DNA of 64,000 nt from an uncultured Planctomycetales bacterium (GTDB lineage Bacteria; Omnitrophota; Gorgyraeia; Zapsychrales; Fredricksoniimonadaceae): positions 8,594 to 72,593 of the forward strand of contig CAZABZ010000001.1 in NCBI GenBank assembly GCA_964483535.1. Reading direction: 5' to 3'. Below are positions 1,054 to 64,000 of the stretch, piece after piece; position 1 is the stretch's first letter; each line of letters begins with the position of its first letter. Under the pieces are notes generated by a model. It was not told where the DNA came from and ran no database searches. It worked only from the letters and a program-made list of their open reading frames with translations. The position numbers and the translations under genes are program-made.

Positions 1054-1067
1054 GAAATTCTTTATGC

Positions 1068-4955: not shown

Positions 4956-5162
4956 TGTTTCCCCCTTTTTGGGTTGAAAATCTAAAAAAAATATAAAATA
5001 ACGAGTTTGAAAAATGCTTTCATTATAAGCATCTACTTAAAATATAACACATTTTTAATAAAAAGCAAGCTTAAAACTTGATAAATAAGCAATATTTATA
5101 TAATTAAAGAACAATTACCCTGAGAAATAAAATCCCCTATTTTTGCTACTATTTCTTACAAA
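4956..5162 (-). promoter_or_regulatory. AT-rich intergenic spacer, probable promoter/5' UTR of the 1295-aa secreted-protein gene
   Basis: 207-bp non-coding gap, very A/T-rich with runs of A, lying between the PilZ gene stop and the next gene start on the same strand. No -35/-10 pair could be assigned with confidence. Confidence 0.3.
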
Positions 5163-5519
5163 TTAACCGCCCCACCATTTATCCTTAAATTGCTCGGAAC
5201 AATGATCGGTGATGTATTGATAAATCTTGTCCTTGTCCGGGTCCAAAATTTTGTCAAAAGACATCCCATAAACATACCTCCCTTGGTCTTCCTCAACCCA
5301 GGGCAAGCTGACCTCAAGTTTAATGGGATCGAATTTGTCCTCAAGGGCCAACGACATATCCACGGACCGCTCTCGAGGTAACCGTTTGTCAAAAGACGCG
5401 CGCATCCCTTTTAAGTTCAGGTCCTCGATGATACACTGGCTGGATTCCTGCGTTCCGGGCAGCCAGACCTTTGCTTCCCTTTTGACCTGCCAGCGAGGCA
5501 GTTGTCTGCGTTCATCCAT
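5163..5519 (-). CDS. PilZ-domain protein (putative c-di-GMP receptor), 118 aa
   Basis: ATG at 5517-5519 is preceded by AAAGGAGAGAAAA, a strong RBS. The N-terminal ERRQLPR matches the PilZ RxxxR motif. DLNLKG about 24 residues later matches the (D/N)x(S/N)xxG motif. The start is only 30 bp downstream of the giant-gene stop. Confidence 0.6.
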   Translation of the reverse strand: MDERRQLPRWQVKREAKVWLPGTQESSQCIIEDLNLKGMRASFDKRLPRERSVDMSLALEDKFDPIKLEVSLPWVEEDQGRYVYGMSFDKILDPDKDKIYQYITDHCSEQFKDKWWGG

Positions 5520-5548
5520 GTTTTCTCTCCTTTCTAACGGGGTTGTTT

Positions 5549-8500
5549 TTAGACCTCTATTGTGTACGCATACGTTGTTGATGTATAACTAATATCATAT
5601 GTAAATACAGCCATCAGCGGCGGTATTAAATTGTCAAATCCTGACCAGAAACCGCGGCTGTTGTGGTCCATGCCCATTGAACTTTCCGCCCACAGCATAA
5701 ATTGCCTCTCCCTGACTGTTATGACAATTTTAATAACGGTAATATAAATGATACGTACGGCATGGAAGAACCATTTTACAAATATCCATTCAAAAAATAA
5801 CGGGAAGCCCCAGATCCCATATAAAAAGAGAAACGCGGGGCCCTCGTTAAAAATTGTGCCATTGCGAGGAGCATTTTCCAACGACGAAGCTCCGCTTCTT
5901 GCTTCCGCAAGAAAACAACGGGACCACGCCCCAAAAAACAGGGCTCCCAAAGACGCTGGTCGAAACGCTTCCAAGGGCCGGACTACTCCAATGATTTTTA
6001 GCCGATGCCGAATAGTTCTGGGCGTATTCATTGATGCTGGCGCCGGCAAAATATTCATCCTGCCGGTTACCGGCGCTGACGCCCCACTTGGATTAATAGG
6101 CCGCGTTAATATAAAGCAAAGGTCGGACAACATCAGCGGGAAGAACACGATTGCAATTATGATCAAGGCCATCATTATTCTTTTTCGTATTCTTTCCCAT
6201 TTCTTACTGGAATCTTTGGCAACAGTCGTGTCCGGTTTGAATGTCAGCACAGCCCCGGGGTGTTCCAAATTATATTGACGATGCAAGGCGATGTTCTCGC
6301 GAAGAGAGCGTGCCGATTTAATCGCACGAATTCCTGCCCGACGAGTCAGGGAGGCGGGCGAATCATCCCCTGGTAAATGCCCATGCCAGCGCATAAGCAC
6401 CCCTACAGGAAGTATGTAAAAGAATGGGGCCTCAAACCGCGGCGCTACTTCCAGTTCAATCCATCGGTGAATACTTTCATGGTCTGGTTCCCATTTAAAG
6501 AAACTCACTATTCTCCTCAGCCAGTACAAGAAATAGCCAATACGATAGGTGATCCCCAGAGTCAACGGCATTTTTGTAGGGACGGGGGATAGAACCACCG
6601 CCGCCATCATGGCCTTCTTCACAGCTTTGGCAGCCTCCGGCCAAATAATCTGCACGGAAAAGACCCCTTCGATCCCCTGTAAAGGCCTGGCAATATCCTC
6701 TTTGGTCAATAACTTCATACTCCTGGCCGTAAAATGAAGCTCCCCTTGCTCCGGGTTACTTTTCATTTCTATGCCTTCAAGCAGATTGGCTTCCTCTAAT
6801 TTATCCTGTACTTTTTGGGCAATGTCTATCATATTCGCGCCTTGCACGATAATCGAAATTTCCGCCTGCGACTGCATAAAGTTACGCAATTGATCCGGTT
6901 TAATCAAATCCATGGCCAAAGCCGCGCACAATTCATTAAAACGGAAATTGCCTTCATTTTGAGCCAACCGGCGTTCTTCATTAAATCTGGCTATAAAAAT
7001 AAACGTCTCCTCAGAGAATGGCCCCCATCCCAATTCTTTGATGATCCCCATCAGTAAATCTTTGCCTCGTTCGACCGCGGCGTTATATTCATTGCGATTT
7101 TGCAGATATGCCAGCATCAGACGCGCCCGCAATGACTGTATTTTATCCCGCAAATTCTGCCGAACATTAATATCTCCCCTCACATCAATCGATAGGCCTT
7201 GTGTGACTTGCTCCAAAACCATACCAGCCCGTAAAGGGGCATAGGGGAGTAATCTCCCCTTACGGCCGCGCTTAAATTGTTCCAACTGCCCCAACACATA
7301 CGGATGATTACCCTCCCCTAAAACAAAACCCCGGTATTGGTCATCAAGCTGGATTTTACGATGCATGGCCGCGTCAAAGGGAATGGCCTTATCCGGCAAG
7401 GTGATAACAGCAAGCGACTTCCCACCTTTGGGGCCCGTAAGTAATAAGAAAATATACATGCGTTCATTGGCCCGTTCAAAAAGAAGGCGCAAATTCGTGT
7501 CAATGTCCACCCCCAGTTGCAATTCATCCCCGGGAAGCGCTTGTCCCTTTATGCCATCATTTTTCAATACATCATTTGCCTTAAAAGCCCAATGCGCGCC
7601 GGAAATAACTGGCGCCACTAAAATATGATCGGGTTGAAAACCAAAACGGTATTTCAAATAATCGGCCTTAGCCATGACTTGTATTTCCCATTTGCGACCG
7701 TCATCAATTAAATTAATATGGGAAGCGCTATAGCCATGTCTTGTATCATTTTTAAACTTTGTTTCTTTAACTCGATCACCCCATGCATTACGGACACCTA
7801 CTTCCGCGAACAGAGCATCCTCTTTATTTTGGGTAATAACCATAACTCTAAGCACATCCCCCAATTGATCAAATTTTTCATATTTGTTAGTTTTAGATTT
7901 TATTTTATCGTATATCGAAGCCAGACCTTTAAGATCCACATGAATTTGAATACCTGGGATCCCTTGTAAGATGCTCTTCATTTTTTTACGCATCTCTTTA
8001 GCAATATCTATAAACCGCTCTTCCACTATGCCTACGGCATACTCAATGTCCTTGTGCTCTGCGATGGCTTGATTAACATTCTTTGCAATGTCAAGTATTT
8101 CGGCTATTTTTCTGCCAATATCCTTAAATTCCTCCGGATGTTCCACCCTAAAAATACCGTCGCGCAAATCTTCCACCATCCGGGCGGAATTTAACCTCCC
8201 TGCCAAAGCCATGTATAAATGCCTGACCTTCCTTATAGAAAATTTCTGTTGTTGAGGGTCTCCATAACGGGTCTGCCATAATGTCAAAGCAAAAAGGACA
8301 TACAACACCCTGGCATCGCCACCAGTCATTTGAATGATAGCATTCATGTAATTAAGAAATGTTGAATCCGTCCTAAGTCTTTTGAATGTCTCATTCCAAT
8401 ACGGCCAGGCCATGATGGTTGCGGCGCGGTCTATCACCGACCCCACATTAGGCCCTAAATTAAGACTTTGCCTAATGTCCGCCTGCTTGCTTTTGGGGGA

Positions 8501-11500
8501 CGTCATGATCCTCAACTGGGCCAATGCCGCCTCTACTGTAACCGTATCATTCGTCCACTGGGAAATCTGACGACGGACAAAGGACTGTCCCTTTTCCCGT
8601 TTCTCACTGAAATCCTTGGTTCCTGTCGTAGAGGATTTGAATGTCAGCACAGCCCCGGGGGTTTCTAAATTATACTGACGATGCAAGGCAATGTTCTCGC
8701 GAAGAGAACGCGCCGATTTAATCATGCGAATTCCTGCCCGACGAGTCAGGGCGATGAGTGAATAATCCCCCGGTAGATGCCTATGCCAGCGCATAATCCG
8801 CTCCAAAGGAAGCATATAAAATAACGGCGCCTCGAGCCGCGGCGCTACTTCCACTTCAATCCAACGGTGAATACTTTCATAACCTGGTTCCCATTTAAAG
8901 AAACTCCTTATTCTCCCAACCCAATACAACAAATAGCCAATAAAATAGGTGATCCCAAAAGTCAATGGCATTTTGGGAGAGACGAGCAGTAGTGGGGCCA
9001 CCACCGCCTGTTGGAGGCCAAGCAATCCCACCTTGCTGCGGCCAGGATCTTTACTCTCCAGAGGCTCAGAGAGAAGACAGTCTTTAAAGAGCTTCTTTTG
9101 TTCGTCGGTAAATTTAAAATCTCCGGCAATCGCATCCATAAGCCCGGATAGGTCTCCTCGGACAAGATGAGTACGCTCGGGGAAGGTAGCTTGAACCCAG
9201 CCCAGAAAAGCCTTAGTCCCGGCTTTCGTTTTCATCAACTTCCAGCCCATGAGGTCTTTCAGGGTGTATTTCTCTAAAATATCCTGATAAAATGTCGCGG
9301 CTTTAAAAACGGGATTAGGAATACGTTCACCCGGATGTGTACCATTAATCTTAAGTGGAATAAATACTGTCTGGTAAAGATGTGCCCAGAAGATGTATCG
9401 CTCTTTGTTATCAGACAAACTTCTCGAAAGGAAGATTCTCTTTAACACAGCGACACGATCAACTGCAACAGGTGCGTTAAGTTCGGCATAAATTAGGACC
9501 TTAACATAATCTTTCCATACCCTAAAAAGAAAGAAGGAATCATCAATGATATTTTTGGCCTGATTGAGAAAGGAGCCAGCTCCTTTCCCTGCTTCAAGGG
9601 ACTCGCGGGCTTGCGACAAAATACCAAAAAACGATTTTAAGTCAGGCTCGCCTTTGATATCCTCCATCTTGCGTATGCCAAATATACATCCGAGCGCACT
9701 ATCAACATGCCTGCCTCCCAAGCAAAGTTCAGTATCATTAAGAAGCCCCGCTAACTTGATATTTCTCCTTTTAATCTCTCCCCAAAGTTGTGTCAGTTTC
9801 TTATCTACAAGCTTGCCGGCAATAACAGCTGCGTTTCGACTACGCATGTCGGTGTACCATGCGGCCGTCCGCAATAGTCGACTGGCAGTAAACCAACCCT
9901 GTTTACCGCTCTGAATCGCCTCTGAGGCCTCATTTATAAGTCTCCAGGCAATACGTTTCTCTTTAACCTTTAGTAACTTTGGATCCCCCAGATAATCAAG
10001 AAGTTCCTCCAGAGATGCCTTCAATCCGGATGTATTTTCACCGTTTTGCTCTGAAAGTATCTTCTTAAGCTCTGAACTTACTTCCATGACCTTGCGGCGG
10101 TCCTTAAGCTCACTTTCGATGGCATCGCAAATACTACGAAAACGTTCCCACTTAACTCGATTAGCAAGGCGTCTGTTCCTTATGGTAATCTTGAGAGCGC
10201 TTTGTGGAAATTTCTCAGCAGTCTTTTTAATGGCTTGCGTGTGGGCTTGGGCCCTCGTCAATGGATTCTGGCGGTCCAGAAACAGACGGTTTTCGATAAG
10301 TCCGTGATAAGCATCTTCGCGGACCAAATTTTTACTGAGTTTATAAACAAGTTCGGAGGAATAATAAATTTCCAGCGTGGAATTTTTACCGCGGGTAAGC
10401 TTGTCCCAAATAAATCCTCTTGGCGGAGCGCGCGAAATCTGCTGGTTCAAAATGAACAGCCTCACCGGAACATCGACAATCTCTTCAAATATCTTCTGGT
10501 CAACATTAACTTCGTCAAACGCCTTCTGAATGATAAGTTTCTTGATGTCCTTCACGTTTTGCGTCGAAACATTCCCTGAACATCCCGGCCCGCCCTTTAA
10601 AGTATCCCTTGTATTGATTTTCGACCCAATCCTGATATCCACGAATAACTCATTGGAATCCTCTGAGGCCAGAATAGTGGCCGCTTGAACTAAATATGAG
10701 ATAAGGTCCTTCTCCAATGCCAAAACCGGGACCGCAGCCGGAACCAGATGGAGAAGTTGCCGGTTGAGGTGAAGAATATAATCCCTGGTTATTTCGTCAC
10801 GGCGTACAATAAGCCAGGATTCAAGCATCTCATCATAAGATGGCGGCACGCGGATTTCCATGGAGGCCATTGTGTCAAGAATTTTACTTATATGCTCATC
10901 CAACCCATACGATGCTTTTGCTTTTTTAAACGCTTTTAATATATATTGTTTTTCTTTTTGCGTCACAGGCTTATTGACTTCCGTCCAGGTCATGGTCTGT
11001 TTTTGCCTCAACTTTTCTTCCTGCGCCGGATGGGACGACTTGTCGGATACGGCCCTCGCCTTTGCCGGTTTAAAAATTATGGACCTTTGATATACTTCCT
11101 GAAGTCCAACAACGATTTGCATAAAACCAATCAGCTCCAAAATATACTTAAAGACTGCATGAGAAGCGGGAATATAAAACAGCGTGGAGAACAAAAACAC
11201 TGTCCCAACAAAAAAGCCCAATAACCCGTTATAGAAAAGTGTTATCGCGTTTACGCCATCCATGAGACCCGAATAAAGAATGTCCTTCAATGAAGCATGA
11301 GCTTTACGTCCCTGAAGCTTTGCCAACAAGAACATCATGGCCATATTAAACGCTGTGATCCCGGATATAGATAAAATAATCCGGACGACTTTATTTATCC
11401 GCACGTATTTCGGCAGGCCGGCCTGCGCCGCTGAAAAATGCATCGTCAATCCATAACGCGGAAAGACTTCCAAAATCTTCGACAACGCCGGGTGTTGCTC

Positions 11501-14500
11501 CACCGCCCTGACAAACTCCCTTTCCGGCCCCAACCTTCTGCCATGAAATCTCTTTACGCTGTAATAGGTGTGCCACGCCAGATTGGCCGCAAACATAGCT
11601 TCCAGCGACTGTATCCTATGCTCGGCATCATTGGCAGGAGCGTTACGTTTCTTCAAGTTCAAAGCGTTGAGCGCCACCTCAGACAGGTCCAGGTTAATGT
11701 CATTCTTTTTTATGAATGGATCGGTACACGCATCTTTAAAATCAGCGACATCAGGATAAAGGACATGCGCCTTGGCCTTAACCTTGGCGCCAATCTTCGA
11801 GTTTGACAACGCCTCATTGAGCCATTCCGCAGACAATTTAGTCGCATCCAGCGTGGCATCCACATAATCCGCCGGCGTATAGCTGTCAAAATCCTGGTTA
11901 CGCATGAAAAGGTCGTGGTCACGTGTATCGTCCCCCTGGAAAATACAGCTATATCCGTCCTTTATTTCCAACGTCCCCCGCAATGAAAACGGAATATTAT
12001 TTTTTACTTTATCAAATAACGAAAAGATATCAAAAATCACGGAGTCGCTGGAAACGGGATTAATCATAAAACCGGCACTCTTGTCTTCTTTCCATGCCTT
12101 AGACTTCACATAAGCCTCGATCTTCTTCCCGATACCCGCCGCCCCCCTTGTAAATTCGACAATTTCACTCTTCTTGTCAGGGTTAAACGAAATGTAATTA
12201 AAGCGTTTCTGCAAAATATCCTCTGTCCTTGCTTTGGGGTAAGGACTGTCCCACAACAGCAACATCTGGTAAATAACTTCCCGGGTGTACTTTTTGTGCT
12301 TGCGTAGAAGGTCCAATATCTCCCTCAATGTTTCCGGTATATCATTGGTTTTTTCAAAATAGTCATACCAGCGACAGATCATGGCGACTAACGCCTTATA
12401 TTCTACGGGGTCCCCTCCGCTGGTAATATCAATGCTCCCATCACGAGCACATTGCCATGGCCTTCCCTTGTTTTGCGGGTATTTCTTATTAAAAACATCC
12501 TCTGGCAAATCATGGATCACTTGCTCGTGTTTGATATTGACAACACGGAAAAGTTTCCTGAATTCTGCGACCAGGCCGTCAAAATACGGACTGGTAATAT
12601 TTGCCCCCCTCAGATAGGCCTGCAAAAATTCCCCATCTTTATTGATGTCGTTATAATGTGTTTCCTTGATGATCGCGATCGTCATGATAATATCCAAAAT
12701 CTCCCGGCCTGTAGGTTTGGTCCCCCTATCTTCTAAAAATTTCAAACGTTCCAATTTTTGTGAAATACCTACTTCGGTCCCGACTTGGCGGCAGCCCCTG
12801 TTACGAGTAAGAATATGGAAAAAACGTTGCGCGTACAGCCGCGCCAGGCAAGGATCCAGAAACTCGAGGAGTTCCTGCGGAACAAGGCTGCGATCAAACG
12901 CCTTTTCTACAATAAAATAAGTGTCTTCAATCAACGCGCCGGCGGCCGCCAATTTTTTATGCGCGATCGACCTTGGATTATCTAATAAATATCGAAGCGC
13001 CAGACGATAAAAAATGACCGCCCTCATCGATGAGAAATATTGTTCGGCATTACCTTCTAAATAACGCTTCAAATTGATCTCCAGCACATTCGCGAAACGG
13101 TACCCGTAATGAACGGCCCAGTTATCATCATAAACAAATGTCGCTTTAAACGAAAACAGACTGTCTGATCGGTTCTGTGGCAACGCCGGGACCACCTGGT
13201 ACCTCAAACAAATATTCACATTCCGTCCAACCCATAAAATCCGGATCATCGTGTTATAAAATTCTTCTTTCAGGGCTTGATCTTCCACGGATTTTTCGTG
13301 CCATTTCTCCCACAGGGCATCAATGACTTGCTCCATCCCTTTCCCCTGTATCCACTGTATCCACCCTATTGGAAGATCCTCCTCTTTTCGCGGCGGAAAT
13401 AAACATACACTGACCGCTTTAGAGAACTCTTCCTTTGATTTAAAAAGATAACCAAAGCTATCTTCCTGGGGCGTAAAATATCTTTCAAAACAACGCTTGA
13501 CGCGGTCTTCTAATTTCTTCCTCTCGCTTTTATTTATTTGCCCGACCAAATACCAGGCCGGGATCTTTTCAGGCTCTTTTTTCGGCGATATAACGCAAGC
13601 TTTGTCTGCGGCGGCTTTATCTTTCACTGCCGAAGATTTTCCATTTGCCAACGAGCCAAACTTCTTTTGCCAGCTGCGGACAAAAATGGCAGCTATCAAG
13701 CTGACGCCAACTAAAACCATGGTCCACTTGAGCATCCCCCCAAGCCACATAGACGCGATGCTCACCGCATTGATCGCCAACAATGCCGGCATTGCACACA
13801 AACCTTTCGCATCATTCGTGAAGTCCACTAACTGACGAAAGATGTTGACACTGTTCGGCGCGTCTTTCCCTTCAATGGGACAAGAGCGGTCATGAAGAAC
13901 GTCCATCTGAATGCGGGCCCCTGCCTCGATCGTCTCATCCTCTTTTTGCATCTCGCTTAACTGTGCCAGCCTGTCAGACCCTTCAAACTCGGCTAACAAA
14001 CCAGCCAAAGGCGCATTCTTATTTTCAATGAAACCTCTGACGTGTCTGTCCAAAAGACGCGACATGGCTGAAGGATATCTTCCCTGCCAGTACGCGCGTG
14101 TAAAAAGACCTTTGAGTTGCGATGGGTTAAACGCCTGGCCATTATGAATAAATACCGTGCGTATCCCCCGATCAAAGCCATAAAGTTCCACCCCAAAATC
14201 ACCATGCACAAACTTTTCGGTCTCTATCGAAGCACGCTTCTGTAAAGCCTTAAACATTCTGCTAACCCAGAACACGATAACCTCATGAAGCATCTCCCGT
14301 GTTTCCTTCTGTTGTGGGCAAATGCTTTCTAACGCTTCCGGTAAAGAACGGCTGCTGAAATCGTCCACCCATTTCTCAAACTGTTCTTCAAGGCTCCCCC
14401 CGAAAATCTTTTCCGAAAAGCGTTCTTTCAAGAACCAATCCTCTCCACGCAAGTCAATAAAAGCATGTATGAAATCCTTCGTCCGCTCATCATATGCCGC

Positions 14501-17500
14501 ATAACTCGGCACCAAAGATAAACCATAAAAAATCATCTGGATATCTGATTCGACTGGATCTTTGAACCCACGCGTACGGTCCTCAAAACGTACAGCCGTC
14601 CTGTCCGCGTCATCATGAAGACGGTAACGAAGATCGGAGAAATCCAAGAATGCTTCCGCATTGGTGTATTTGCCCTCAAAAATGTAAATAACATCTTTTT
14701 CAAAAACAATCGGAATATCTTGTCTTTCCGTCTGTCCACGGATATAAGCATTTTTGATCACATACTCCTGACGTTTGGAACCGGAGGCGCGAAATGCGTG
14801 TAAGTTCCTTAAAAGATCTAGGGCCAAAGTAAAATCAAAAAAGCCCTCTTCTCCCAGATACTCCTGACCTGGCTTAAGATTGCCGACCATGTCACCTAAA
14901 AGCGCTCTTTCCTGTGGGGTCAAAACCAACGGTCCGTTGGCCGGGTCATGGGCTACAACTTTCTGCACAGCTTCCCGCCACTGGCGGTCTCTAAGGAACC
15001 AGTCCAGCTCAATGATCTTCACACGTGCGGTATCCGCTAGAAACTTCTCAATGAGTTTGGCAATGATCGTCTTCCCTGAACCTGAACCGCCGTCAATGGT
15101 GACAATAGGAGCATTACCTTCAACCCCGCGGGCAAGACGTTCACGGATATGTCTTACGATCGAAATGACAAACGGTGTCATACATGACTGAAGATAGTCA
15201 AGGGAAGTAGCAAATATCGGGTTGCCTGTCTTGGGATCTATCGGAGGATGATTATAATAACCGTGAGCTAAAGCAAACTCATGAGCAGGCAAAGGAATAA
15301 CCGCCGGGTCCTGTCCGTAACGATAACGTGTCGAAGAAATCGACAAATCGATCTGTGGATGTTTCAACAACAGTACCGGCAAATCCATTTGCCCGCCATA
15401 AAGGGCCTTGCCCTGTTGATTATACAACTCCATTCTTTCCTGCGTTATGCCCAGGCCAAACTTGCCGCGTTGTATCCAGCCAATACTAATACGATGCCGC
15501 GGATCTATCCTGTCTTCGTTTTTCTTTAAAATACTGTAAAACAGCTCGTAATAGTGAACGACCCGCTTTTCGTTCTCGATCCCAAGCAAATACACGAAAT
15601 GGACCCGTCGGCCACGGTTATAATCCATCAATTGCAGCATCTCTTCAAATCCTTCTCGCTCATTATCCGGCTCACTGCCAAAATCAGTATAACGTACCAG
15701 AGGCCCCATCCCGTCGATGGACAATTTGGTCATCATATGTCGATGTTCGGTGGAAACCTTCTCTGAGCGATAAACCTTCTTGTAACTGATACGACCCTGC
15801 ACCCTGATGGCCACAAAATCAAGTCCGAGTAAAGCAATAGCAAATAACGACGGTATCAAATGCCCATGGTTGGGAGGATTGCCGGCAATTGGCATAAGCC
15901 CTATCTTGATTTCCTGATCAGGATCGGCATCCTCCAGCGCCACCGGCCCATCATCCTCGATAGAATATCTTAATAATTTCGCGCGCTTAAACGGATTTGT
16001 GACCTTGCGACGAACATTTTCTTCAATCATCCCGAACACAGTCTCATAAGCTCTGAGGATCCTACTATTGAGGAACTTGTTGCTGCGATCACGGATCTGC
16101 GGGTCCGCTTTAATTTGCTGGTCAACAACATTGGCCAGCACTCCTTGCACGGCCTTAATCGCTGTAACATGGCGGGTTGCGGGATCCTGACCACGTTTGC
16201 CTTCAAGCCACCGGCGCAAAATAACTTCACGGGCAGAATTCTGCTCTTCAGTGAGATTAAATTCTTTACCGTGTGTGGCTAAGGCGCGAATTTCATGTCC
16301 AAGACTTAACGCTGTTTCAAGGCGGGTGCTATAAGCGGGATAATAGGTGCTGGCCCAAAGGTATTCCAGGCCATCTTCGATAGTAGACGTGGCCAAGAAC
16401 CCTTTAAAAGGCGCGCCTTTTAACAGGCCTGCCCTTCCCATCCAACGCAGTTTGGCCGCAGCCTGGCTGTCGCCAGTTTCTTCAAGGCCGCGGGCCATCA
16501 GTTCCCACATCTCCTCGGGGATGTCCGTCACCTTGCTCCGATCTAACTGTGTGAACTCATCCGCCACGATCTTCTCATAAGGAATGTCCCTCATTTCTAA
16601 AGGCATAATGGCCTCGGGCAGACGGCGGGTGGGGTCTTTTTTGCTTGAGGATGGCAAATTGTCTTTGGTCTGACATTGTGTCAGAAAATCATGAAGGAAA
16701 TGTTTCTTAAAACTCGCAACATACGCCAACTTTCTCTCTGCATCTGTAAGTTTATTCGCTTTGGCATATCTCTTGGATTCTTTCACAACCAATTGATAAA
16801 GCTCTTGCAATCCTTGAATGGTATATTCCGATTTTATCCTTCCATCAGCATTTAAATATTTAGCTAAGAATTTCTTCCTTTCAGTAGGGATATGATAACC
16901 ATAGCTTGCAGTTGTCATAATTCCGTCTTCTTCCAACACATCACCGTCAGAAACAAACAATGCGTTCTTGTCCCCATCAATAACAACTTTTGATCCTTCC
17001 TTAAGTTTCAGGCCGTCTTTCAAAACAATTCCCTGCCCCGCTCCTGTTAATTGCCACTTAGCAACAGCAAGATTAATTAAAGAAGGAATGCCATCCAGAC
17101 GAGTCAAGTCAGCTTCATGAGAAGAACTATTGCCATAAGTCGTAATCAGGCCTGCTTTGGGATAATCAAACATCACCTCTAAGACCTGCTCTTGATTGCC
17201 TTCGTGCGCAAGAAAAATAACCGGCTTGTTTTCACTCATCAGCTTACGGGCTTTATTAATATTCCAAACAAGATATCCTTGCATAGCCCCGGAGGTTGAA
17301 GCTTCGCCTTGAGCAAGCCTCTTGGCCTTAACGCCTTTTTTAACTTTATATATTCTTCTCACTCCTAATTTATCTTGTAGTTTTTCAATCCGTGGAATGG
17401 CGCGGGCCTCTGAAATCTTACCTTGAGCTAATTGCTCTTTGATATAGGCGATTTCCGCTTGTGGAGCAAAATTTATGTTTCGAGTTTGCAAGAAATAAAT

Positions 17501-50500: not shown

Positions 50501-53500
50501 TTCTAATCGAAATCTTTTATTTTCCCTATCTAATGACATTGGAGTCAAACGCTGTTGGGGGGCCAAAGTCAAAAGTTGTTGATTGTAATTCTCTGCCATA
50601 GCTATTTCATCAGCGGTCAACTTTTGACGTTTTTCTTTTTCAGCGGCAATAACACCTTCCACTTTAACGCGCTCATCATCTAATTTTGCCCAATCGCCCG
50701 AGGCCTCAGTAATATTTCCACTTTTGTCAATATCCACCTTGATGCCAGTCTTCCCATCTTCCAGATGCAAAATACCATCTTGAAAACTTTGTTTAAAATC
50801 AATGGCCGCCAGCACATGCGCCAGAGCGCGCAAATTTATTTCTGAACCGCCACCAATCTTGCCATTATATATATTATCCAAGACCTTCGTTAAGGTTGTA
50901 TCCGTGATATGGTGTTCCAGTATATGGGTCATCACATCCATCTCTGCTGCTCTGAGGGCCAAAAGATCTGTAGTCTTTGCCAGCGAAGCCCGGATCTTTG
51001 CTAAGATTTGATCTGCATCTGGTTTGTTATTCTCGCGATAGGGCAGTTTTTGCTGGAAGGTATACAGCTTGCGGCCATCGCCCGGATCATACACGGGAAT
51101 ATTGGCCACTAACAGATCTTCAAATCCTTTCATTCCCTTGGTTTCGTCATCTTTGACCACTTCAATGATCCCTTTTTCAAGTCCCTTGCCGGATTTGATC
51201 TGTTCATCGAGCACCCCTAAAGCCAATCGTGCGGCTGGCAAACCGGAGATAGCCATGTTGCGACTGCGTTCAAATACTTTTTGAGCCTCGTCTCTGAAAG
51301 CGACATACATTCTTTCATCGCCCAGCGCTAAGGCGCGTCTGGCTTTCTGCAATTTCCCCCAGCCTTCAATCATATGTGTAAAGATTTCACCCAAAGCGTA
51401 ATCATGATCGTAAATTCCGACGTTCAAATTCTTTGCATCATTATGTTCGATGATGGTGCGCGATGCCCCCAGCACCGTCTCTACTTCCACCAGACGGGCT
51501 ATGCGGTCAATGATGTGGCCCACTTCATGGTCAGGAACGCCATTTTCCAAACTTTCCGGGTCAAGATCAAGCAGGGCTAACAAAGCTTTAGTCCCCAAAG
51601 CCAATCTCAAATTATCCGCCAAACCGGCGCTGCCATGCTGTTCCGCATAAGGATCAAATGTCATTTCAAAATCATTGTCTTTGAGATATTGATTAATTCG
51701 TTCCTTAGCTTCTTTTATGTTTGCCTCAGTTGGATCTAATAAAAGCCTGGGCAATTGATGATCTAGGTTCTCCAATAAATAACCTTTCAGCCACATAAGC
51801 ATATGACTTAAGCGGCTGCTTTTTTGACTGTCTGTCTTGAACTTCAGATAAACCCTTTGGCCTGAGCGAAGAACTTCTTTCCATTGACTTTGGTCTTCTA
51901 AACGAATAGACTTTTTATTTTCATCATCCAAAGTAATAAACTCGACATCAATGTCGTAACGTTTGACCAAATCCGCCATATCCTCCAAAAGACCTTCATA
52001 AACTGCGGTCCTGTCATCATTGCCGGGTAAACGCACTAATTCACTGCGTTTTTCCAAAGATTCCTTAAAACGGTTCGTGGCCGCGATATGATCGTGCACG
52101 GTAGCAATATCTTCTGCATAAATGATCGCGTCCTTGGGTGGCTTTAAACCCCTTCCTCTTAAATCTTTCCGTAAATACGGATCACTGTTCAAATCAAAAA
52201 TATATTTATTGTCTTTAGTGGTCTTAATGATACGTCCTAATAAATACGCTCTATTTTTAAATGTTCCGTCCTTACCGATAATGCGTCCTGTGTCATGCTC
52301 TATTACATCCCCCTGCTCAATCCCTTCCTTGGCATACCCATTTGTTTCAACAATAACCTTTTTAACATTCCAGGTTCCGTTTTCTTTCATGCGGCGTTCA
52401 CTGGTGATGATACGTTCGGTACGGAACTTGGTTGGGTCAGCCTCATCCTTTGTTAAAATCGGTTCAACAAACCGCTTGATATCCACTTCAGTGGCCCCCT
52501 TGGGGATCGCCGCAAAATTATTGTTGACGAATATGCCTTGATCCGGTAATTCCAAAATTTCATCGCCCTTGTTCTCATCTAAGGTGCGGATCAACACGTC
52601 TCCGTTTTTAATCGTTACCCCCTTATATTTGATAGGAGTCGGGTTGGTGACAATGATCTTTCTGATATTAACCTGCCCATTCTTATCGACGCTGACAATC
52701 GAACGGCCATAAATCGTCTCCCAGCCACGCATGCCCCCTAAGAAAACCTGTCGCTTGGTGTTGATGCTGTATTCTTGAATTTGTTTCTCTATGTCTTTTT
52801 CTTTCTTAAGCGCCTCCTGATCAATACGGATCAATTGATTTTCAACCAGCAGTGCTCTTAGGGCCCCGTCTGATGATGTTAAGCGAGAAATCAAATCTTT
52901 CTCTCCGGTGGAAAATTCTTCAATACTTAAACGTTCCTGGGCATTCTCCCCGCTGGCTTCAACCATTTGTCCGTTATTTGCGATACTGAAATCCCCTTTT
53001 TTACCGCCGATAGCCTGTAGTAAAATATTTTGATTGAAACGGTTATCTTTCTCTAATCTCATCCTATGATTAATCTTGTCATAAGCATATTGAACAGGCG
53101 CCAAATATTGTTCCCCTGTTTGGGCATCAATGATTTGCAAAATAGCATCTGAAACATATTCACCTTTATCTTTTCGTACATTAAACTGCACCAAACGCTT
53201 TTCAGCAACAGGCGCGAATGACATGAATGCCCGTTCATGTTCAGCTAAAGGATCGTCTGTTTCCTCGAATATTTTTAAAAGTTCTTGATCGGCCTCAGAT
53301 TTATACCAATCCTCCTGGGAAACGACCTTTTTAGTATTGGGGTTATAGACCTGATTTTCATTTGCGTCCATAGTCGGAGCATTGGCATAATTACCAAATT
53401 TTAACCGCTGACCGACGTTAAATATCTCCCCTTCCTTATAACGCATGGTACTAACAGACTTGTCAACCAGTATCCGCTGATAGCCGCCTGTGTCGCGAGG

Positions 53501-56500
53501 AAGAATATATTCATTGGGCCCCTTGGCAGCAGGCTTCTGCGTGCTGACTTGTGGTGTTCCCGTGGATTGACTTTTTTCTTCAGCCATAACAGCTTCTCCT
53601 AAATGTCGCTGCCTGATCATTCTTACGACTTCAGATATCAACTCTGGATTGGCACGATAATCGGTTTGCATGGTCTGGTGCGCCCCGTTTTGCGCCATAT
53701 CTAAAGAAATGCCCTGGGCGATGGCCATCATGAATTTCTTAAGATCCTGGCGCACTTGATCTTTTTGTTCTTTGGTCAAAGTGGGATCATTTAATTTTTG
53801 GTTATAACCTCTCAAAGTATCCTTGGTGTCTGACTTTAGATTAGGATCTTCTTCTATCATAAGCACTTGCTTATAGCGACCCTTGGTACGCTGGGAATTA
53901 TCATAATCTTCCGTATTTTTTAGATACGAATTTTGACGGCCCATGGCCTGCATAATACCCGATAAAGAACGCGAAGAAAGGTCAATTTGAAAAGCAGTAA
54001 GAACATCCGCTATTTTATTCCTTACTTTAATGCGTCCTACCGTATCATCGATGTCTTCCTTCATCGATGTAAGAATGACTCGAGCTTTCATTTTCCGACC
54101 AATTTCTGCAGGCGAAAGACCTTGATTCTCCGGTCTGCCGCTTAATTTATTAAATTCTGCTTCTACATCATCCTTGAGTTCCCCTTCAATAAATCCCTTA
54201 GCTTGATCATGCCTTTTTATGTACACTTCCCCGTCAATGCCTAACTCAGCCAATGCTTTTATTAATTCTTTTTTGACGGCTTTTTCACCATAGCGTTCAA
54301 GCAAAGGTTGCAACATAATAGTGTTTAAATACAATAATCTCTCATTGCTAGTCCTGCCCACCCCATCTTCGCCAAACTGTTCTTGAAGTTCTCTGACGAT
54401 TCTTTGCTTTAATGTAAGTTTACCTTCCACATCAAACTCGTATTTTCTATCTGTGACAGGAACCTCTGCTTTAGGCTGCCAGAATTCAAACCCTGCGATT
54501 TCCATGAGATCCCTGGCTTCTCCAAAAGAACCGCTAAATCCCATGACCAAGGCACCTTCACTTTGGAAACGTTTGACCACCTGAATACCTGTAGCGCGAT
54601 TACTCGGATGTTCTGCGGTATGCTGGAACCAATCTTCCATTCCAATATCCACTGCCTTTTTCTCAACTTCTTTCCCTCCCTCCATGACCTTGACCCCATT
54701 CTTCAAGTGTGAGACAATGACCCTCGAGTACATGTTCAAACCACTTTCATCTGAGAATATGCGATTAAGCTCCTCCTCCCCTACGTTTAGCATGTTGCGA
54801 GGATTGAGGGTGAATCCTTTGCGACGACTGAGCGTAAATCCACCATCTTTATTAATTATAATTTCCAACAAACCCATATTAAGAGCATAAACAAAATCTG
54901 CTTCTGCTCGTAGGGCCTTCCCTAACTCTTCACCTGTATAAACTATTTTCCCGTCTTTCCTAACGTTGTTGTCTTTATCAATCTCAAAACCTTTTTCCTT
55001 ACCCATTGACAATATTTTCTCATATAAAACTTTTTGAACCTCTTCAATAAATTCATGTGCATGGAAGGATTGACCAAATCCTTCGCTTTTATTGATCACG
55101 TTTCTAACATTATTCTTAACAGCCTCATCCACCACCTGAGTTAAAACATCAACATGAAAAGACAGCCTGGCCATTTCCCTTTTATACTCATCACTGTCCT
55201 CACCAAGTCTGGTGACAATTTCTTTGCCATATTCCGCATGCTTCCCGAATATCAAGGTTGGTATGGTTGCTTGAAGGTGGGCTTCATCTATAAATACAAT
55301 CGCGTTCTTCGTGCTAGTTAATTTACCTTTAATAGCGTTTATTTGAAGATTTAAATCCGCTGTTTGAGACCCCCGATGCGATATGACCGTTATCTTGCCT
55401 TCTTCATAAGGGATCTTACCCTTAATATCTTCACTATCGACGACTAAATAGTGTTCGGGATTATCCTTAAATGTATTGATGGCTTGGTCCGTCGTAATAT
55501 AGATGATCTGCCGGCCTTTATCCGTTTTGACGACTGTTTCCATAATACTTCTGGCTAAGGTTGACTTCCCTTCACCTGTGCCCAACGCTATAGCAATCAA
55601 ACGGCTCCCTTCTATCGTATTAGGATTTTCAATGGCTTCAAGAATTCCACGAATCATAGACATCTGCCCCTTTTTATAGGCAAATACTTCCCCACGAGGG
55701 ATCTGTTTTGCGAGGGCGCTAAACACTTCGAAAAACTGCGTGTCCCTATCTTGGGCTGTTCCCCAGCCTTCCCGCTGTCGTATTTCCCCTAATTTACCCT
55801 TAAATATCTCCTTGGCTATGGCATCCGCTGAAGCTTGCAGGTCTAACATCTGGGCCTTTTTCACCCGCCACTGTTTTTCTACTTCTTTCAGATCAGTGAT
55901 GAGATTATCTACCTCCCCTCCTAATCCCGGTTGCTGTCCCCATTTTTGCTTGATTATGCTTTGGGCTTGATCAAATTTCTTTGCTTTTATCAAAGAAGAT
56001 ATTTGAACCAAATCACTTATAACATCTTTCGCTGTAATAAAATCAGCTTCCTTTTCTCTTTGGTAGGCTAATGCTAACGTCTCTTCCCCTACTTCCTGCC
56101 CCTTAAGCCCATACTGCCCTAACAATAATTTCTGCAATGTCCCCTTAATTATGTCCAATTCTAATCGTTGAGATTTCAGACGGGAACCGATAATAGCAGT
56201 AACGGGGGAATTTATCCCTTGAGCATCTTCTCTTGGGGTGTTCCAATAAAGGGCGTTCGCAAACTCCCGTTCCGGGGTCCAAAAATCAGATGAAAAATAC
56301 TTGGTTTGAGAAGGGAATTGTGTGTCACGGGATGCAGGGTGGATGACGTTTGTACTAGCGCCGACTTCTTCAACCGCAACTTCTTTTGTTTTAGTGTTTT
56401 CTGCGGAAGTTTCCGGCGGAGCCTTGGATGGTGGCTGGGTCCCTTCAATTGCCTCGCGTTGTCCTTTCCTGCCGTTAAGATATTCCGCGATATCATGCGC

Positions 56501-59500
56501 GTCTGCGCTGAACTCCTCTGCTCCCGGCAAGAGAACGCCTTGTTCTAAAAGTGCGCGTGTTACCTTGCTAATTCCTTCCAGTCGACTAATTCCTTCCGGA
56601 AGGATCTGTTTAAGTAAATTTTGCTGACGTTTAACACGCGCCTCGGTTAACTCATGCAGAGTGGCTTGAGCGGCGCCTTCTTTGGTAACAATCAAATACT
56701 CACGATTGCCTCGGGCATCTCGAAAAACAACAAAGCCTCCGTCAGCGCCGTCTAAATAAGAAGAATTATCCTTAACGATATATCGCCTGAACGTCGTAGT
56801 TGTTCCATCAGAATTTTGAATAACTCGTTGTAATCTTCCTTCGCTAGGGGATCCTATATATAAAGGCTTAGCAGTTCCTGTTCGAGCTGCGTTCTGTAGG
56901 CGCTCAAGCCAAGCTTGTTTTTCTTGTTCTGTTACAATTTTACGTCCATCTGCTGCGCCGGCATCCTCCACAGTCCGGACTTTAAAATTGTCGTCAATGA
57001 AATCATCCACTTCTTTGCCCTTCTTCCCCAGAATATCAGCTATATCTTTCAAATATTCCAGCGCCTTCGTTTGATCACCAGATGTTTTGTCAATCTTCCC
57101 TTCAGCCCTGTTTTCAAAAAATCTCGCTTCTGGATTTAATTGGAATATTTTTTCAAAAGCTAAACGAGCTTCTTCTCTGTTGCCAGCTTCCATAAAAGCA
57201 TGTCCCAAATCATCATATAACTGTGACACGGCAACTTTCTTCCCATAATCTTTCCCGGCCAAGTCTTCAGCTTCTTGCGCCAATGTCTTGGCACTGTTTA
57301 AATCGCCAGGATCTTTAGAGAGCGCGGCTTTTCTTATTGCCATAAGTGCTGTGTCATTTCCCCTACGGAATTTATTATGGGAATACTCATTGGCCTTTGC
57401 AAATGCCTCTCTGGCAATGAGTGTATATCCATTCTTATTGAACTCTTCAACGAATACGTCATGTGCCAGATTAGACGCAATATCACGCAATGCCTTGCCT
57501 TGATCTTTTTTGCCTTGCTGACTTGCCACTTCCATCAATTGCTCTGCAATTTTTAAAGACGTGCCCTTGTTTGCTCCGCTCCCTTCTCTAATACTTAGTA
57601 AATTCCACCCACTCTCCAATTTGGAATCCCCCGGCGCATTATCAAACGCCACCTCCGCAAACAAAGTTGCAAAATTACGGCCTTCCGGAATACTTTTCCC
57701 TAACAACCCTCGGGAAACCGCCATCAAATCTTCTATCAGCGATTGATGCTGACTCGCGCCCTGCTGCTCTTTGGCTTCAGAAACCAATTTTTCCATTGCT
57801 GTTCTTGCGGCCTCAATATTACTTCCGCCATTCTTTGATAGCTCTAACGTTTGATCAAGTATCGCTTGTCTTTGAAATAAAATTCTTGCATTAAATTTCC
57901 CCGAGGCCGAAGCCTTTTCATTTAAATCGCCAGCTCCCTTCAAATCACCTACCGAAAATAGAGCTCTAACAGCACTATCTAAAGCTTTACGGTCCCCTAC
58001 CTCTACTGATTTAGCTCCTATTTCGTTAAAAATCTCTATCGCTTCTTCACTGTGTCCTGCCCTCTGCAAACTCTCCCCAACAGCCAAATGATCTAAAAGA
58101 ATCCCCGCCTGAGCTGATTGGTCACCCTTCTGACCTGCAAGCTCAAACGCTTTTTTAAATGACGCCACTGCATCATCTGTTTTGCCCTGCGCCCGTTGAG
58201 CTACAGCAAGAGAATAATACTTTTCATGGCTCTGAGAATCAGATTCAACAGCTTTAGAATAATACGCTTCAGCTGCCGCAAATTGTGCTTTCCCCTCCGC
58301 TTCTTTGCCTATGCTAACCAACCGTTGCCCTTCTTGAATAGAATATTCTCCTTTGCTTAATACATTAGACGGCTTGGCACCTAAAATCAGTCCTACCCAA
58401 CTGCCAATGCTTCTTTCGCTAAAGCCGCCGGAGTTGGGGCCAAAACCTGTAGAAAGATTTTCACGCGTAACAGTAATAGAACCGTCCTTATTAATTACTG
58501 GATTTCCCGCCCGCATTGTAGAAGCCCAATCAATTGCTGAGTCTATTCCTGTTACAACCGCGGCCACTTTAGCTAACCCTAACGGCTCAGCCAAACCGCT
58601 TTTTTGTATAGTATCCCTTAAGCTAATCCTCCATTCGCTAGCAGGGCCACTGGACTTACTCATTAATGTCGTCGCTGCAAGCATCGGGTTTAATGAAACA
58701 CCGCTATTAGGTGCTGTTACAGCGGCATTCCACAAAATTCCCTTTGCCTCAGGTGAGAGACTCCAAGAATCTCCTTGAAATAATTGTACAAAAGTAGTGT
58801 TCTCTTTGCCAAATGCCGAACCTTCCTGAGTCAAATTTAACAATGTCCCATGAGGCAATTGCCCAGTTTCTAAACCAACTATGATTGATTTGTAAACACC
58901 TGTATAAAGAGGGAATTGTGTGCCAATCGGTATCCACTTCAATCCGCCCCATGCGCCATAGGCCCCGAATCGTTCAGCCCCGTTTATAGATAGCCTATCC
59001 AGTAAATTTTCCATCGTTCTAATAGGTTGTCCTGAGGCAGTCTCTGATCCCGTTGTCTCTAATCCAAATTTCTTACCAACATTTTTTGATATCTCCCCTG
59101 AATCTTTAACGGCTAGTCCTGCCATCACTGACCAAAATGCGCCACGGAAAGCTGATGCCCCTATTTCACCACTTAAATTTTCATCCCCAAGCGCCATCCC
59201 TCCATAGCCATTATTTAAACTTACATCACCTAGATGCCAACCAAATGTGTGTTCCAGCGACCCCACTGCAAAGTCTTTACTGACATTTACTACAGCTCCG
59301 GCACCCGCCAACGAAGCATATCCTTTAATCCCATTATTCACGAAATACTTAGCTTGCCCACCCGCGAGAAAACGCGCGCCCAAAGCAAATGTTGTAATAT
59401 CAATAGCATCTTTCGGTGAGATATAATTCCCTGAAGCCAAACCATATCCTGCTCTTACGCCAACAGCAAGGGCTGGCCAAGTAAAATAACTCAAATTAGA

Positions 59501-62500
59501 CGTCGGCGAAAGCCATCGTGTAAGGCTTGTCGACACTGCACCACTTGTTAATGAAGTGGCTGATGAATAAGCGCCCATTCCTAATCCAAAAAGAGCAGGC
59601 TTCCAGGCACTGTTGAGCCCTGCAGACAACATTTCTCCAAATTCTGCTTTTGGATTTTGCCATTGATTACTAATAATGCCCCAAGTGGCACCCCAACTGC
59701 CTAATTGTACGCCATAATTTAAAGAATTAACTGCTCCGACTACCCCCTTAGTTCCAGACGAGGCTTTTTGTAAGATTTCCAATGCCTCTTTAGAAACTCC
59801 CCCTGTAACGTCTTTCATAGAGGCCACTGTTTCTTGGGAAGCTTCTTGCGTAATTCTTTCTGAAGATCCTTCTGCAGTTGCTTTGGCAGAAGCCAACGCA
59901 TCTTGAACGGCTCCTTTAGTTACTGTATTTGCCAATGCCCCTACTCCAATTCTTCCAGTATTCACCAATATTAAAGCTGTGGCTAATTCCACATTCTGAG
60001 AAAATGTGAGAGGGCTCCCTTGATATATAGGAACGGCATTAGCCAGTGCCAATCCGGTGCCGACAACGGTTAAATTGCTGATGGCAAAATTCTTTACTCG
60101 ACTTGTTGTTAATGCCACAAATTCGCCATTGCCTCCTCTAATTGTTAAAGGGCTAAGAACGGTATTCGCAAGTCTTCCCGCCGCTGATTGCTCTATAGCA
60201 TTCCCCCAAATATTACTAATAGAACCTGTAACTGCCTTAAAAGCGGCTCCAGCTGCAAATACTTTCAAATCTTGTTCTGGTGTCAAAAGTTCATGATTCC
60301 TAACTAAAGAAAAAGCATTTGAAACCCCTACCCAGCTTAATCCAGAACCAACGATTGGTCGCAAAAGCGCCCCTCCCCATATTCCACCTGCGCCCACAAC
60401 TAACGGAACTGAAGCTGCCTTCGTAAAACCTGAAGAAAAATTATCTAATGAATACCCATTAGTATACATACTCCTCAAACCCTCTGCGGTACCTGCTGAT
60501 AATGCCAAAGTTCCCAACCCAAACTTAGCTGCGTTCTCTCCTGCCAAACCACCCAAGCTCGTCCATCCAAGCCTAGCTGCTAACGTATCCCCTGTAGCAG
60601 TACCTAAACTACCTAAGACACGCGTCACCGGCACACTTAATTTTGATGCTGCAACATCCAACCCTAACAATCCCCCTGTAACTTTAAATAAAGATGTTGC
60701 TAAAGAAGCGGCCTCTCCGGTTGCTGAAAAAGCCATCAAGGTATCAACCTCTACTGGATTCTCTTCCACTATTTTGTTAATTTTAGATGCAACAACTTGG
60801 GTCACACCATCTCTTCCCAATGCATTATCCCTTACGCTTTCAGATATTGGCTGATGTAAATAGTATGTGCTGTTACTCCACATGTTGTATTCTCCCTCAG
60901 GACGATCGATATAGCCCCCTCCCATATTGTCAATCTCATTGGAAAGGTGCGCTATATTTGCACCCGCCCAATTCGCGAAACCGCTTATCGCATACAACTC
61001 TTTACTACCCGTCAACCATGATTTATCTTTCGTTTCAAAAGATGCTCTGGGAATAGCACCCCAAGCTTCATAAGCCTTGCCTGCTGATGCAAAATATCCA
61101 TTAATATTTTCTTGGTCTGTCCCTATTCCAGCTTTTGCGCGCTGTAAATATCTATTCGCATCATCCAAGAAATTCTGAACTGTCTCTTCCTTTCCTGTTC
61201 CCTTAGCGCCATATTTCCCTTCCATCAGAGCATCTTGTAGTCCCGCCATCGTATACAAAGCAGACTCTTTAGACAAAGATACCGCCCCATTATTCCAAAC
61301 CCTCTCAGCTAATTCGGGTGTACCATTTTTACCAAAATTCACACTTCCTTGCTCCGGCGCCAATTGATATACTGATTCTGAAAGAAGCTGGGGAGCGTTA
61401 GACCCCTCTGTATTGCCAAATTCCCGGTTCCAGGTGAACGCTGTAACCCCCAAGGAATCAAGTCCTTTTATTGTGACAGCTGTTAAATCCCCATGCGCGC
61501 CAGCGTTAAAAGTCGCATGATTAAAAGAATCAATTATCAACTTTTGATCGCCGCTTCCCCAAATGGTCCCGTCATCTTCTATCGCACGAGCTTGAAATAT
61601 TCTTCCCTCAACAGACTTCGTGTTATCTTGTTTCTTAGTCTGAGTATTTTCTTGAGGTTTAGTACTGTCTGAAGCAAATATCGGCAACATCACATTTTTG
61701 CCATCAAAACTCACCACAGGATTTCCTTGGTCGTTTATTTTCGATACCACGGGAATAAAAGTCTTCCCATCTCCTGACAGCCCTTTAACATTAAAATTCC
61801 AATCGATCTTGCCTCCTATGCCTGTCTGGGCACTAATCACATCGCCGGCATTCATTGACAACAGCACTTGTTTATTATTTAGATATCTTGCTTGAACTGT
61901 ATCGCCCTTTAAGAGAGCTGCTGTAAGGGCCGGTGATGTCGCGGTAACCCACGCATTATTTACCAGGGCCTTAGTCGCAACTGCAGATCCAATCTCTTTA
62001 CCTTGCACTGCTTGTCCGCTGTCATCAAAATGTACTGTGTCTTGGCCCTTGCCCGGAGCAAATGAGCTGATGAGTGAAGTTATTGTTGTCCCCTCCGCAG
62101 TCTGTTTTAATCCCCTTGCATAAGCAACTGCTTGAATCTCCGGGTGCGCTAGAAAACCCTTCAAATCGACGTCCCTCCAATCCCCCTGTCCACTAAAAGA
62201 GAAACTCGCGGGATTATAAGAAGTAACATCGACTTTTTGAACCCCTGTCCCATTAACAATTCCCTGTTTTTCTCCATCCACATAAATAACTCTTCTCGAT
62301 CCCGAACTTCCGAGGAAATCCAAACTAATATCATTCCCTAAATTAGAAACTAATCCCAGGCGTCCGAGGAAATCCGAAATAGGTCCCTCACCTGAATTAG
62401 GAGCTGTCCCCCGACCTCCGAGAAAATACAAAGGAGATTCCTTCTGCGCTGTTATCTTCCCTTCCGATGCCTGCCCGCCTACCAATGGCATATTAGTTCC

Positions 62501-64000: not shown

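Follow-up and report, generated by a model that had tools for sequence, protein, structure and literature searches.

The stretch of DNA analysed here, 64,000 nucleotides (nt) of contig CAZABZ010000001.1 (the window, always taken at its full length), is dominated by one giant open reading frame (ORF) on the minus strand, at positions 5549..64000. The giant ORF is one genuine, very long gene. With a probability of roughly 0.6, it comes from an uncultured, most likely Omnitrophota bacterium and would encode a multi-pass, membrane-anchored mosaic protein of the Omnitrophota giant kind, as judged from its sequence. The window contains its 3' 19,483 sense codons and a terminal TAA at 5549-5551, together 58,452 nt or 91.3% of the window, and the 5' end lies past window position 64000. 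Frame 0, read on the reverse complement from 64000 to 5549, has no TGA, TAG or TAA before the terminal TAA. The two alternative frames of the same strand hold 1,136 and 1,657 stops over this span, so that a chance origin of the giant ORF is excluded. An earlier note on this DNA had described a stop-free ORF at these coordinates that fills 91% of the window, cannot have arisen by chance and belongs to a gene longer than the window, and each of these statements is borne out. Its figure of 19,480 codons results when counting begins at 63991, the first ATG inside the window. Codon reassignment was rejected as the cause of the stop-free frame, since the neighbouring genes end at standard stops. The gene call on an identical public contig gives a full product of 21,986 amino acids (aa), of which ~2,503 codons are outside the window. 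The aa numbers used below are those of the in-window residues, with aa 1 at the window position 64000 end; all features of the giant protein are on the minus strand.

The coding signal and the public assemblies both support the integrity of the gene. In a codon-usage log-odds score trained on the giant ORF, frame 0 is at the top in every 600-nt scoring segment except the last and averages 0.26 +/- 0.06 bit per codon. Two parts come close to zero, a low-complexity stretch rich in Pro and Gly at aa ~6,800-7,000 and the last ~550 nt. In-frame sites with a Shine-Dalgarno sequence and an ATG number 13, against 13.3 expected, and promoter-like and terminator-like matches in window positions 1-20000 show no excess over shuffled controls. 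Tandem Repeats Finder reports three tiny arrays only in the whole window; with DNA tandem repeats this scarce, a collapse of repeats during assembly was rejected as an explanation. A look-up of the small downstream gene returned eleven public contigs. The contig JGI 3300041809 Ga0455670_0001368 (115,215 bp) has 100% identity to the window over the 14.8 kb compared, and contigs of ENA ERZ27250145, JGI 3300018046 and other samples carry the 3' end, up to 7.8 kb, with 99.4-99.8% identity and zero gaps. Two related loci from other organisms, L092 and L093, are stop-free over their whole 22 kb and collinear with aa 2373-6191 of the giant protein.

These data also bear on the alternative that consensus errors or chimeric joins merged several adjacent genes into a single frame. 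Agreement of independent assemblies covers the 3' 7.8 kb of the giant ORF, and the internal ~50 kb outside it is present solely in two near-identical contigs (115,215 and 118,561 bp) that possibly share raw data; this counts against a single gene, and the coding signal missing from the last ~200 codons could be taken in the same sense. However, the fusion of dozens of genes would need the removal of every stop and the maintenance of one frame over 58 kb, while the frame-0 signal is unbroken along the ORF and internal in-frame sites with a ribosome-binding site (RBS) and ATG occur at the chance rate. Furthermore, the 3' 7.8 kb is free of indels in ENA and JGI assemblies from other samples, and the homologous regions of two other organisms have no stop over 22 kb. 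An artefact is thus highly improbable.

At the start of one contig (L001), in window positions 13250-13389 (aa 16874-16917), 12 substitutions, 10 of them non-synonymous, fall within 44 codons, and the ~2,300 codons after this patch have zero substitutions in that contig. The cluster reflects either variation between strains in this patch or assembly noise at the end of the contig.

The predicted membrane segments of the giant protein are distributed along its length. A hydropathy scan gives ~30 transmembrane (TM) helices in seven or eight clusters, numbers that come from hydropathy only and are ambiguous for each cluster. A cluster of ~10 predicted helices is located at 40994..42766 (aa 7079-7669). 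The region 23765..30013 (aa 11330-13412) has a single helix (aa 11330) and two clusters (aa 12009-12149 and 12848-13412), with ~12-14 helices. Further helices, ~2 plus 3-4, are predicted in 11102..13810 (aa 16731-16778 and 17538-17633), and a TM-like cluster (aa 19271-19430, within 5552..6190) ends the chain. The hydropathy and profile scans agree with the alternation of membrane segments and enzyme-like modules that the earlier note had described.

The cysteine content of the giant ORF is low, with 37 residues in 19,483 (0.19%) compared with 1.12% in nine neighbouring housekeeping proteins. Cysteine is absent from the first 6,602 residues (44194-64000; P ~2e-32), and its density is near normal solely in aa ~16,270-18,310.

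Matches to hidden Markov models (HMMs), in two offset Pfam tilings and one NCBIfam tiling, cover ~9% of the giant protein and leave ~90% without a match. The curated Pfam cut-offs are reached by TPR, ResIII, PPDK_N and, marginally, B12-binding, and by no others. Nearly all of aa 1-13,600 is without HMM matches, and the recognisable enzymes are confined to the C-terminal third. The 'ordered string of recognisable enzymatic modules' claimed previously therefore exists as far as the modules go and is overstated in extent. The product was also said to be other than a simple repetitive adhesin, and this stands, with no repeats other than those of aa 1-896 and a single duplication of 180 aa.

A domain resembling T4-type (GH24-like) lysozymes is located at 37985..38440 (aa 8521-8672) and includes the motif HEGFRAWPYVD. 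It matches the PHROG family phrog_2083, 'internal virion lysozyme motif' (E=2.5e-7), and phrog_13211, of the T4 gp5 type (E=0.013), and seven of its eight weak matches in the PDB are T4-type lysozymes. The end-to-end alignment to T4 lysozyme has a z-score of 6.3, which none of 2000 shuffles reached, and it retains the equivalents of the catalytic Glu11 and Asp20. Phage_lysozyme of Pfam does not match the domain.

The cobalamin-binding and radical-SAM domain at 22061..23182 (aa 13607-13980; motif CPWGGCAYC) is matched by both Pfam (B12-binding, 32.7 bits with a cut-off of 32.1; Radical_SAM, 28.6 bits) and NCBIfam. A B12-binding domain followed by a three-Cys radical-SAM core gives it the predicted make-up of a class B enzyme. 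Residues 166-497 of OxsB (PDB 5UL2) align with aa 13,638-13,978 at E=1.4e-40, including the B12-binding Rossmann part, and the CX4CX2C cluster motif is identical. In contrast, the N- and C-terminal domains of OxsB have no counterpart, and the domain described here forms part of a membrane protein of 22,000 aa. The radical-SAM triad provides the only three cysteines in aa 13,501-14,000.

At 16937..18013 (aa 15330-15688), an ATP-grasp domain and a phospho-His swivel domain of the pyruvate phosphate dikinase (PPDK) type are matched by PPDK_N of Pfam (55.9 bits) and by TIGR01828 of NCBIfam (E=2.8e-46, model positions 200-507 of 865 only). Both domains align with PPDK (PDB 1KBL) at E=5e-28. The TIM barrel for phosphoenolpyruvate and pyruvate, for which PF02896 gives no match in the module, and the first ~200 residues of PPDK are missing; from its sequence the module is thus a PPDK-derived phosphotransfer module rather than a complete PPDK, and it resembles the stand-alone 'ATP-grasp + swivel' phosphotransferases.

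The other modules of this part are less well defined. DUF218 and NAGPA (phosphodiester glycosidase) give weak matches below the Pfam cut-offs at 19775..21109 (aa 14298-14742), and a NadD-like nucleotidyltransferase (HxGH) and a uridine-kinase-like P-loop (GGSGSGKT) give weak matches at 14948..15916 (aa 16029-16351). A RelA/SpoT-type nucleotidyltransferase-like module at 7667..8365 (aa 18546-18778) scores 26.4 bits with a cut-off of 27. It is flanked on either side by a duplicated module of ~180 aa, copy A at 8591..9124 (aa 18293-18470) and copy B at 6191..6745 (aa 19086-19270), which share 50-77% aa identity and 72% nt identity. Each copy has a hydrophobic start and then the motif FFKWEP..ESIHRWIE.EVAPR. 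The hydrophobic C-terminal tail, at 5552..6190 (aa 19271-19483), has three TM-like segments. Its last ~210 codons have little or no codon-usage signal, an odd hydrophobic composition and most of the strain-level substitutions, and yet the frame is uninterrupted in each of the five independent assemblies whose sequence departs from the window there. Rapid evolution of a membrane tail may explain this, or else the recent gain of a read-through extension.

In the N-terminal half, ~4 divergent copies of a Gly/Asn/Thr-rich repeat of ~230 aa (61313..64000, aa 1-896) share 25-29% identity. They are Cys-free, have no HMM match and are presumed to be surface or adhesion repeats. A Gly/Ala/Ser-rich, weakly hydrophobic region with glycine-zipper-like segments comes next (58301..61003, aa ~1000-1900; Kyte-Doolittle 1.1-1.6), and a region that looks similar in composition by eye, unaligned, is found in the relative P0001, where it lies immediately upstream of the TPR-like and helicase-like parts. 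TPR repeats occupy parts of 57128..58357 (aa 1882-2018 and 2218-2291).

The conserved collinear core (45428..56974, aa 2343-6191) has 21-46% identity to P0001-P0007, L092 and L093. A two-lobed, SF2/SecA-like DEAD motor ATPase is located at 53594..55723 (aa 2760-3469), with Walker A ALGTGEGKST and Walker B VFIDEAH. The module at 51221..51742 (aa ~4087-4260) has an invariant HExxH (HEVGH, aa 4158) and a downstream GEIxTHxIE that is invariant in five sequences, and a second HExxH (HESIH, aa 4655) is found at 49901..50203 (aa ~4600-4700). Neither HExxH motif is lost in any of the five family sequences examined. By its motif, the first of these orphan modules is a possible zincin-type metallopeptidase. 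The core ends with a second P-loop NTPase-like module at 45428..47758 (aa 5415-6191; Walker A GNSSGKT at ~aa 5484-5490, Walker B LIVDEMQ), which is conserved in L092 and L093; in hhalign it has no significant relation to the first motor (probability 3.7%).

Few relatives of the giant protein were found. A HMMER search of 1.84 billion representative proteins, with aa 2651-3650 as the query, gave seven, P0001-P0007, at 21-46% identity; they are fragment-like, 149-4,901 aa long and collinear with aa 2343-5029, and some extend across aa 3900-5030. A pattern scan of JGI metagenomes with the alignment of the HExxH region gave three loci, of which L092 (GC 41%, on a contig of 1.02 Mb) and L093 (GC 52%) have a part collinear with aa 2373-6191 at 23-26% identity. 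On this sequence evidence, the giant protein belongs to a small, thinly sampled giant-protein family with a conserved core of ~3,800 aa, of which ~10 fragments or loci were found. The query aa 1-1000 (61001-64000) had no match, not even to itself, in metagenome contigs, genome contigs or word-indexed proteins, and the same is true for aa 3900-5030 (48911-52303) in the word-indexed protein search. The giant protein's self-match is also missing from the exhaustive HMMER library. The searched collections seem to lack very long proteins, and the rarity of relatives appears to be partly a database effect.

The proposed working of the giant protein follows published proposals for its class (PMC10066038; 10.1101/2023.11.21.568195; 10.64898/2026.06.07.730766). 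The ~30 predicted TM helices would weave the chain through the cytoplasmic membrane. The cofactor- and nucleotide-dependent modules, namely the two P-loop/SF2 motors and the B12 radical-SAM, PPDK-type, kinase/nucleotidyltransferase-like and RelA/SpoT-like modules, are recognised by similarity of sequence or fold, and we infer that they would be cytoplasmic. The N-terminal repeats, devoid of Cys, and the lysozyme-like domain of the T4 type would be outside the cytoplasm and serve cell attachment and local wall hydrolysis, with energy or regulation provided by the cytoplasmic modules. Threading of the protein's own external segments would be assisted by the SecA-like motor, and the PilZ protein encoded downstream would bring the system under the control of cyclic di-GMP.

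Several observations weigh against this reading. Besides the ambiguity of the helix counts, no strong TM helix is predicted in aa 1-7078, between the Cys-free repeats and the two ATPase modules. The motor at aa 2760-3469 is compared with the SecA DEAD motor (PDB 3BXZ, 6SXH) solely by fold, a comparison in which SecA and the remaining SF2 helicases are not clearly told apart, and no HMM, SecA_DEAD included, or profile assigns it to SecA. At 21,986 aa, the protein is 'large' (>=10,000) and below the 30,000-aa threshold for a 'giant' in the scheme of Archaeovorin, the class discussed below. The Pfam and NCBIfam tilings give no glycosyltransferase, methyltransferase, NUDIX, HEAT, GGDEF, C39 or S8 domain, a negative limited by the fact that such signature domains of Archaeovorin, among which glycosyl hydrolases and peptidases also count, are too divergent for HMMs in the Omnitrophota giant class. 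In their place the giant protein has TPR, the PPDK-type and lysozyme-like domains and the HExxH motifs. Finally, the best match of MutS among the species representatives of GTDB, at 58% identity, is in a metagenome-assembled genome (MAG) labelled Planctomycetales, with all others at <=44%.

The last point suggests another host, a deep-branching member of the Planctomycetota or of another lineage of the PVC (Planctomycetes, Verrucomicrobia, Chlamydiae) group, so that the gene would join the planctomycetal 'giant genes'. The MAG with the nearest MutS, an 'uncultured Planctomycetales bacterium', also has an ORF of >2,718 aa that is convergent on mutL, and proteins of >=10,000 aa are known from several PVC phyla. 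However, the Planctomycetales label of this MAG is automatic, its long ORF has no detectable similarity to the giant gene, and the genes downstream of the giant gene point to the Omnitrophota. The first of them, a PilZ-domain gene of 118 aa (5163..5519, minus strand; PF07238, E=3e-9), starts 30 nt after the giant stop and has its own RBS, GAAAGGAGAG. A pilZ gene in this place fits the Omnitrophota pattern, since most giant genes of this phylum are reported to have at least one small pilZ directly 3' and a type II/IV secretion-like locus 5' (10.1101/2023.11.21.568195). The next, p1295 (1068..4955, minus strand), encodes a 1,295-aa secreted protein with a signal peptide. Its family has at least 3,900 matches; the N-terminal domain is ~50-55% identical to thousands of them, and every match with an NCBI name among the best 120 is from Candidatus Omnitrophica/Omnitrophota. 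The attribution to Omnitrophota made in the earlier note fits this context and, on sequence grounds, the host probably belongs to that phylum; a planctomycetal or other PVC host is unlikely.

A different alternative accepts the gene and questions the single molecule. The product may be a polyprotein, one chain that is cut into separate enzymes and membrane proteins by its own HExxH modules and never acts as a whole. The preservation of the two HExxH motifs in five of five family sequences that share only ~25-40% identity is in favour of such processing, as is the heterogeneous and enzymatically unrelated nature of the modules, and the same idea has been raised for peptidase domains (C39 and S8) in other giants (West-Roberts et al., 10.1101/2023.11.21.568195). 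Against it, comparison of the HExxH module with HMMs and PDB profiles found no relation to any solved peptidase, the AlphaFold2 model of the HExxH region, built from a three-sequence alignment, is of low confidence (pLDDT 46.9, and below 50 around the first HExxH and GEIxTHxIE), and there are no known cleavage sites. Peptides of V. archaeovorus (Velamenicoccus archaeovorus) map along its giant ORF, and processing is unsettled there (PMC10066038). A polyprotein is unlikely, yet a serious alternative. An extended form of the idea takes aa 2343-6191, with the TPR, the SecA-like motor, the two invariant HExxH modules and the second P-loop motor, in organisms with GC of 41-52%, as a distinct and sparsely sampled giant family with a built-in machine for export and proteolytic processing of the rest of the chain. 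If true, a self-secreting and self-cleaving polyprotein would bring the lysozyme and other modules to the cell surface. We know of no such self-export plus self-cleavage mechanism described for any bacterial protein, and this extended form is a long shot. The membrane-anchored mosaic acting as one molecule is the preferred reading.

The neighbourhood of the giant gene offers further observations. The p1295 family has an N-terminal domain of ~350 aa (LPxPGTMVxLSPxxxPxxIKGLxxHxxNPFLFDF...VWVNLSPYEK) and a C-terminal domain of ~60 aa (GGIDLN...KDGxGVEMNIDPAM...LSPVI..ITPV). The 'cargo' between these caps can be enolase, hexokinase, full PPDK, UDP-glucose pyrophosphorylase, adenylate kinase, NUDIX, ankyrin, glutamate dehydrogenase, malate synthase/isocitrate lyase, transaldolase, PGK or HD. 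No description of this cap-cargo-cap architecture was found in the examined literature on Omnitrophota giant genes. Compared with the window, the contigs L001 and L003 have 99.4-99.6% identity down to position 459; positions 1-398, inside mutL on the plus strand, have 89.8% identity with gaps. The drop in identity inside mutL (window 1-459) suggests a recombination boundary between strains. The long ORF of the MAG with the nearest MutS (contig CAZAXH010000018.1, 14375-22507) runs off its contig and has a near-exact tandem duplication of ~115 aa at its C-terminus; with no detectable homology, it was rejected as a homologue of the giant gene.

At ~22,000 residues, the giant protein is among the longest bacterial gene products, and its class is thought to serve attachment and wall digestion by ultra-small episymbiotic or predatory bacteria. 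To our knowledge, no Omnitrophota-type giant protein has been characterised biochemically. The lysozyme-like domain, the OxsB-like B12 radical-SAM domain with its intact cluster motif, the PPDK-derived module and the two HExxH modules provide tractable handles, and the recurrence of the gene in several public metagenome assemblies means that existing meta-omics data could reveal its expression. The interest of the giant protein is moderate, owing to its rare family, the conserved core and the experimentally tractable domains.

Genes of this size are well documented. ORFs of >20 kb have been counted in 77 genomes out of 116 for the Velamenicoccia and in 20 out of 23 for the Omnitrophia (PMC10066038). 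In a 2026 survey, 3,650 proteins have >=10,000 aa, with a maximum of 147,155 aa (10.64898/2026.06.07.730766). Genes of >90 kb known number 46, with products up to 85,804 aa. These counts make the earlier description of such proteins as very rare out of date. The giant ORFs of Omnitrophota are common and rich in TM helices, with only few of their domains annotated, and roles in host or prey attachment and wall degradation have been proposed for them (PMC10066038). Giant genes are a normal, documented feature of the Omnitrophota, and the giant ORF at 5549-64000 leaves this picture unchanged. What sets it apart is the small number of its relatives and a conserved core of ~3,800 aa.

Among the known classes, the giant protein fits the 'multi-enzyme metabolic cluster' class, which includes radical-SAM domains (Nielsen & Lui 2026, 10.64898/2026.06.07.730766). 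Like its members, the giant protein has >=10,000 aa, is predicted to be membrane-anchored through its TM clusters, and has many Pfam families with none dominant, each present once except TPR. It also has a radical-SAM domain, kinases and phosphotransferases, and is a near sequence singleton, as are 80% of the class clusters. It differs in having ~8-10 Pfam families, most below cut-offs, compared with 21-50 in the class examples, and in coming from neither Fennoscandian groundwater nor the Baltic Sea. The other comparison is with the Archaeovorin type, defined by the 39,678-aa protein of Velamenicoccus archaeovorus LiM (West-Roberts et al. 2023, 10.1101/2023.11.21.568195). In contrast to Archaeovorin, the giant protein is related to only ~10 known fragments or loci, and its putative wall hydrolase is T4-lysozyme-like rather than SLT. 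Both nevertheless come from one ORF tens of kb long, have numerous predicted TM helices and consist mostly of unannotated sequence in which divergent enzyme domains are scattered. TPR, a PPDK-type module, a DEAD motor that is SF2/SecA-like by its fold and a putative domain of the peptidoglycan-hydrolase type are further features in common, as is a small pilZ gene directly downstream of the giant gene.

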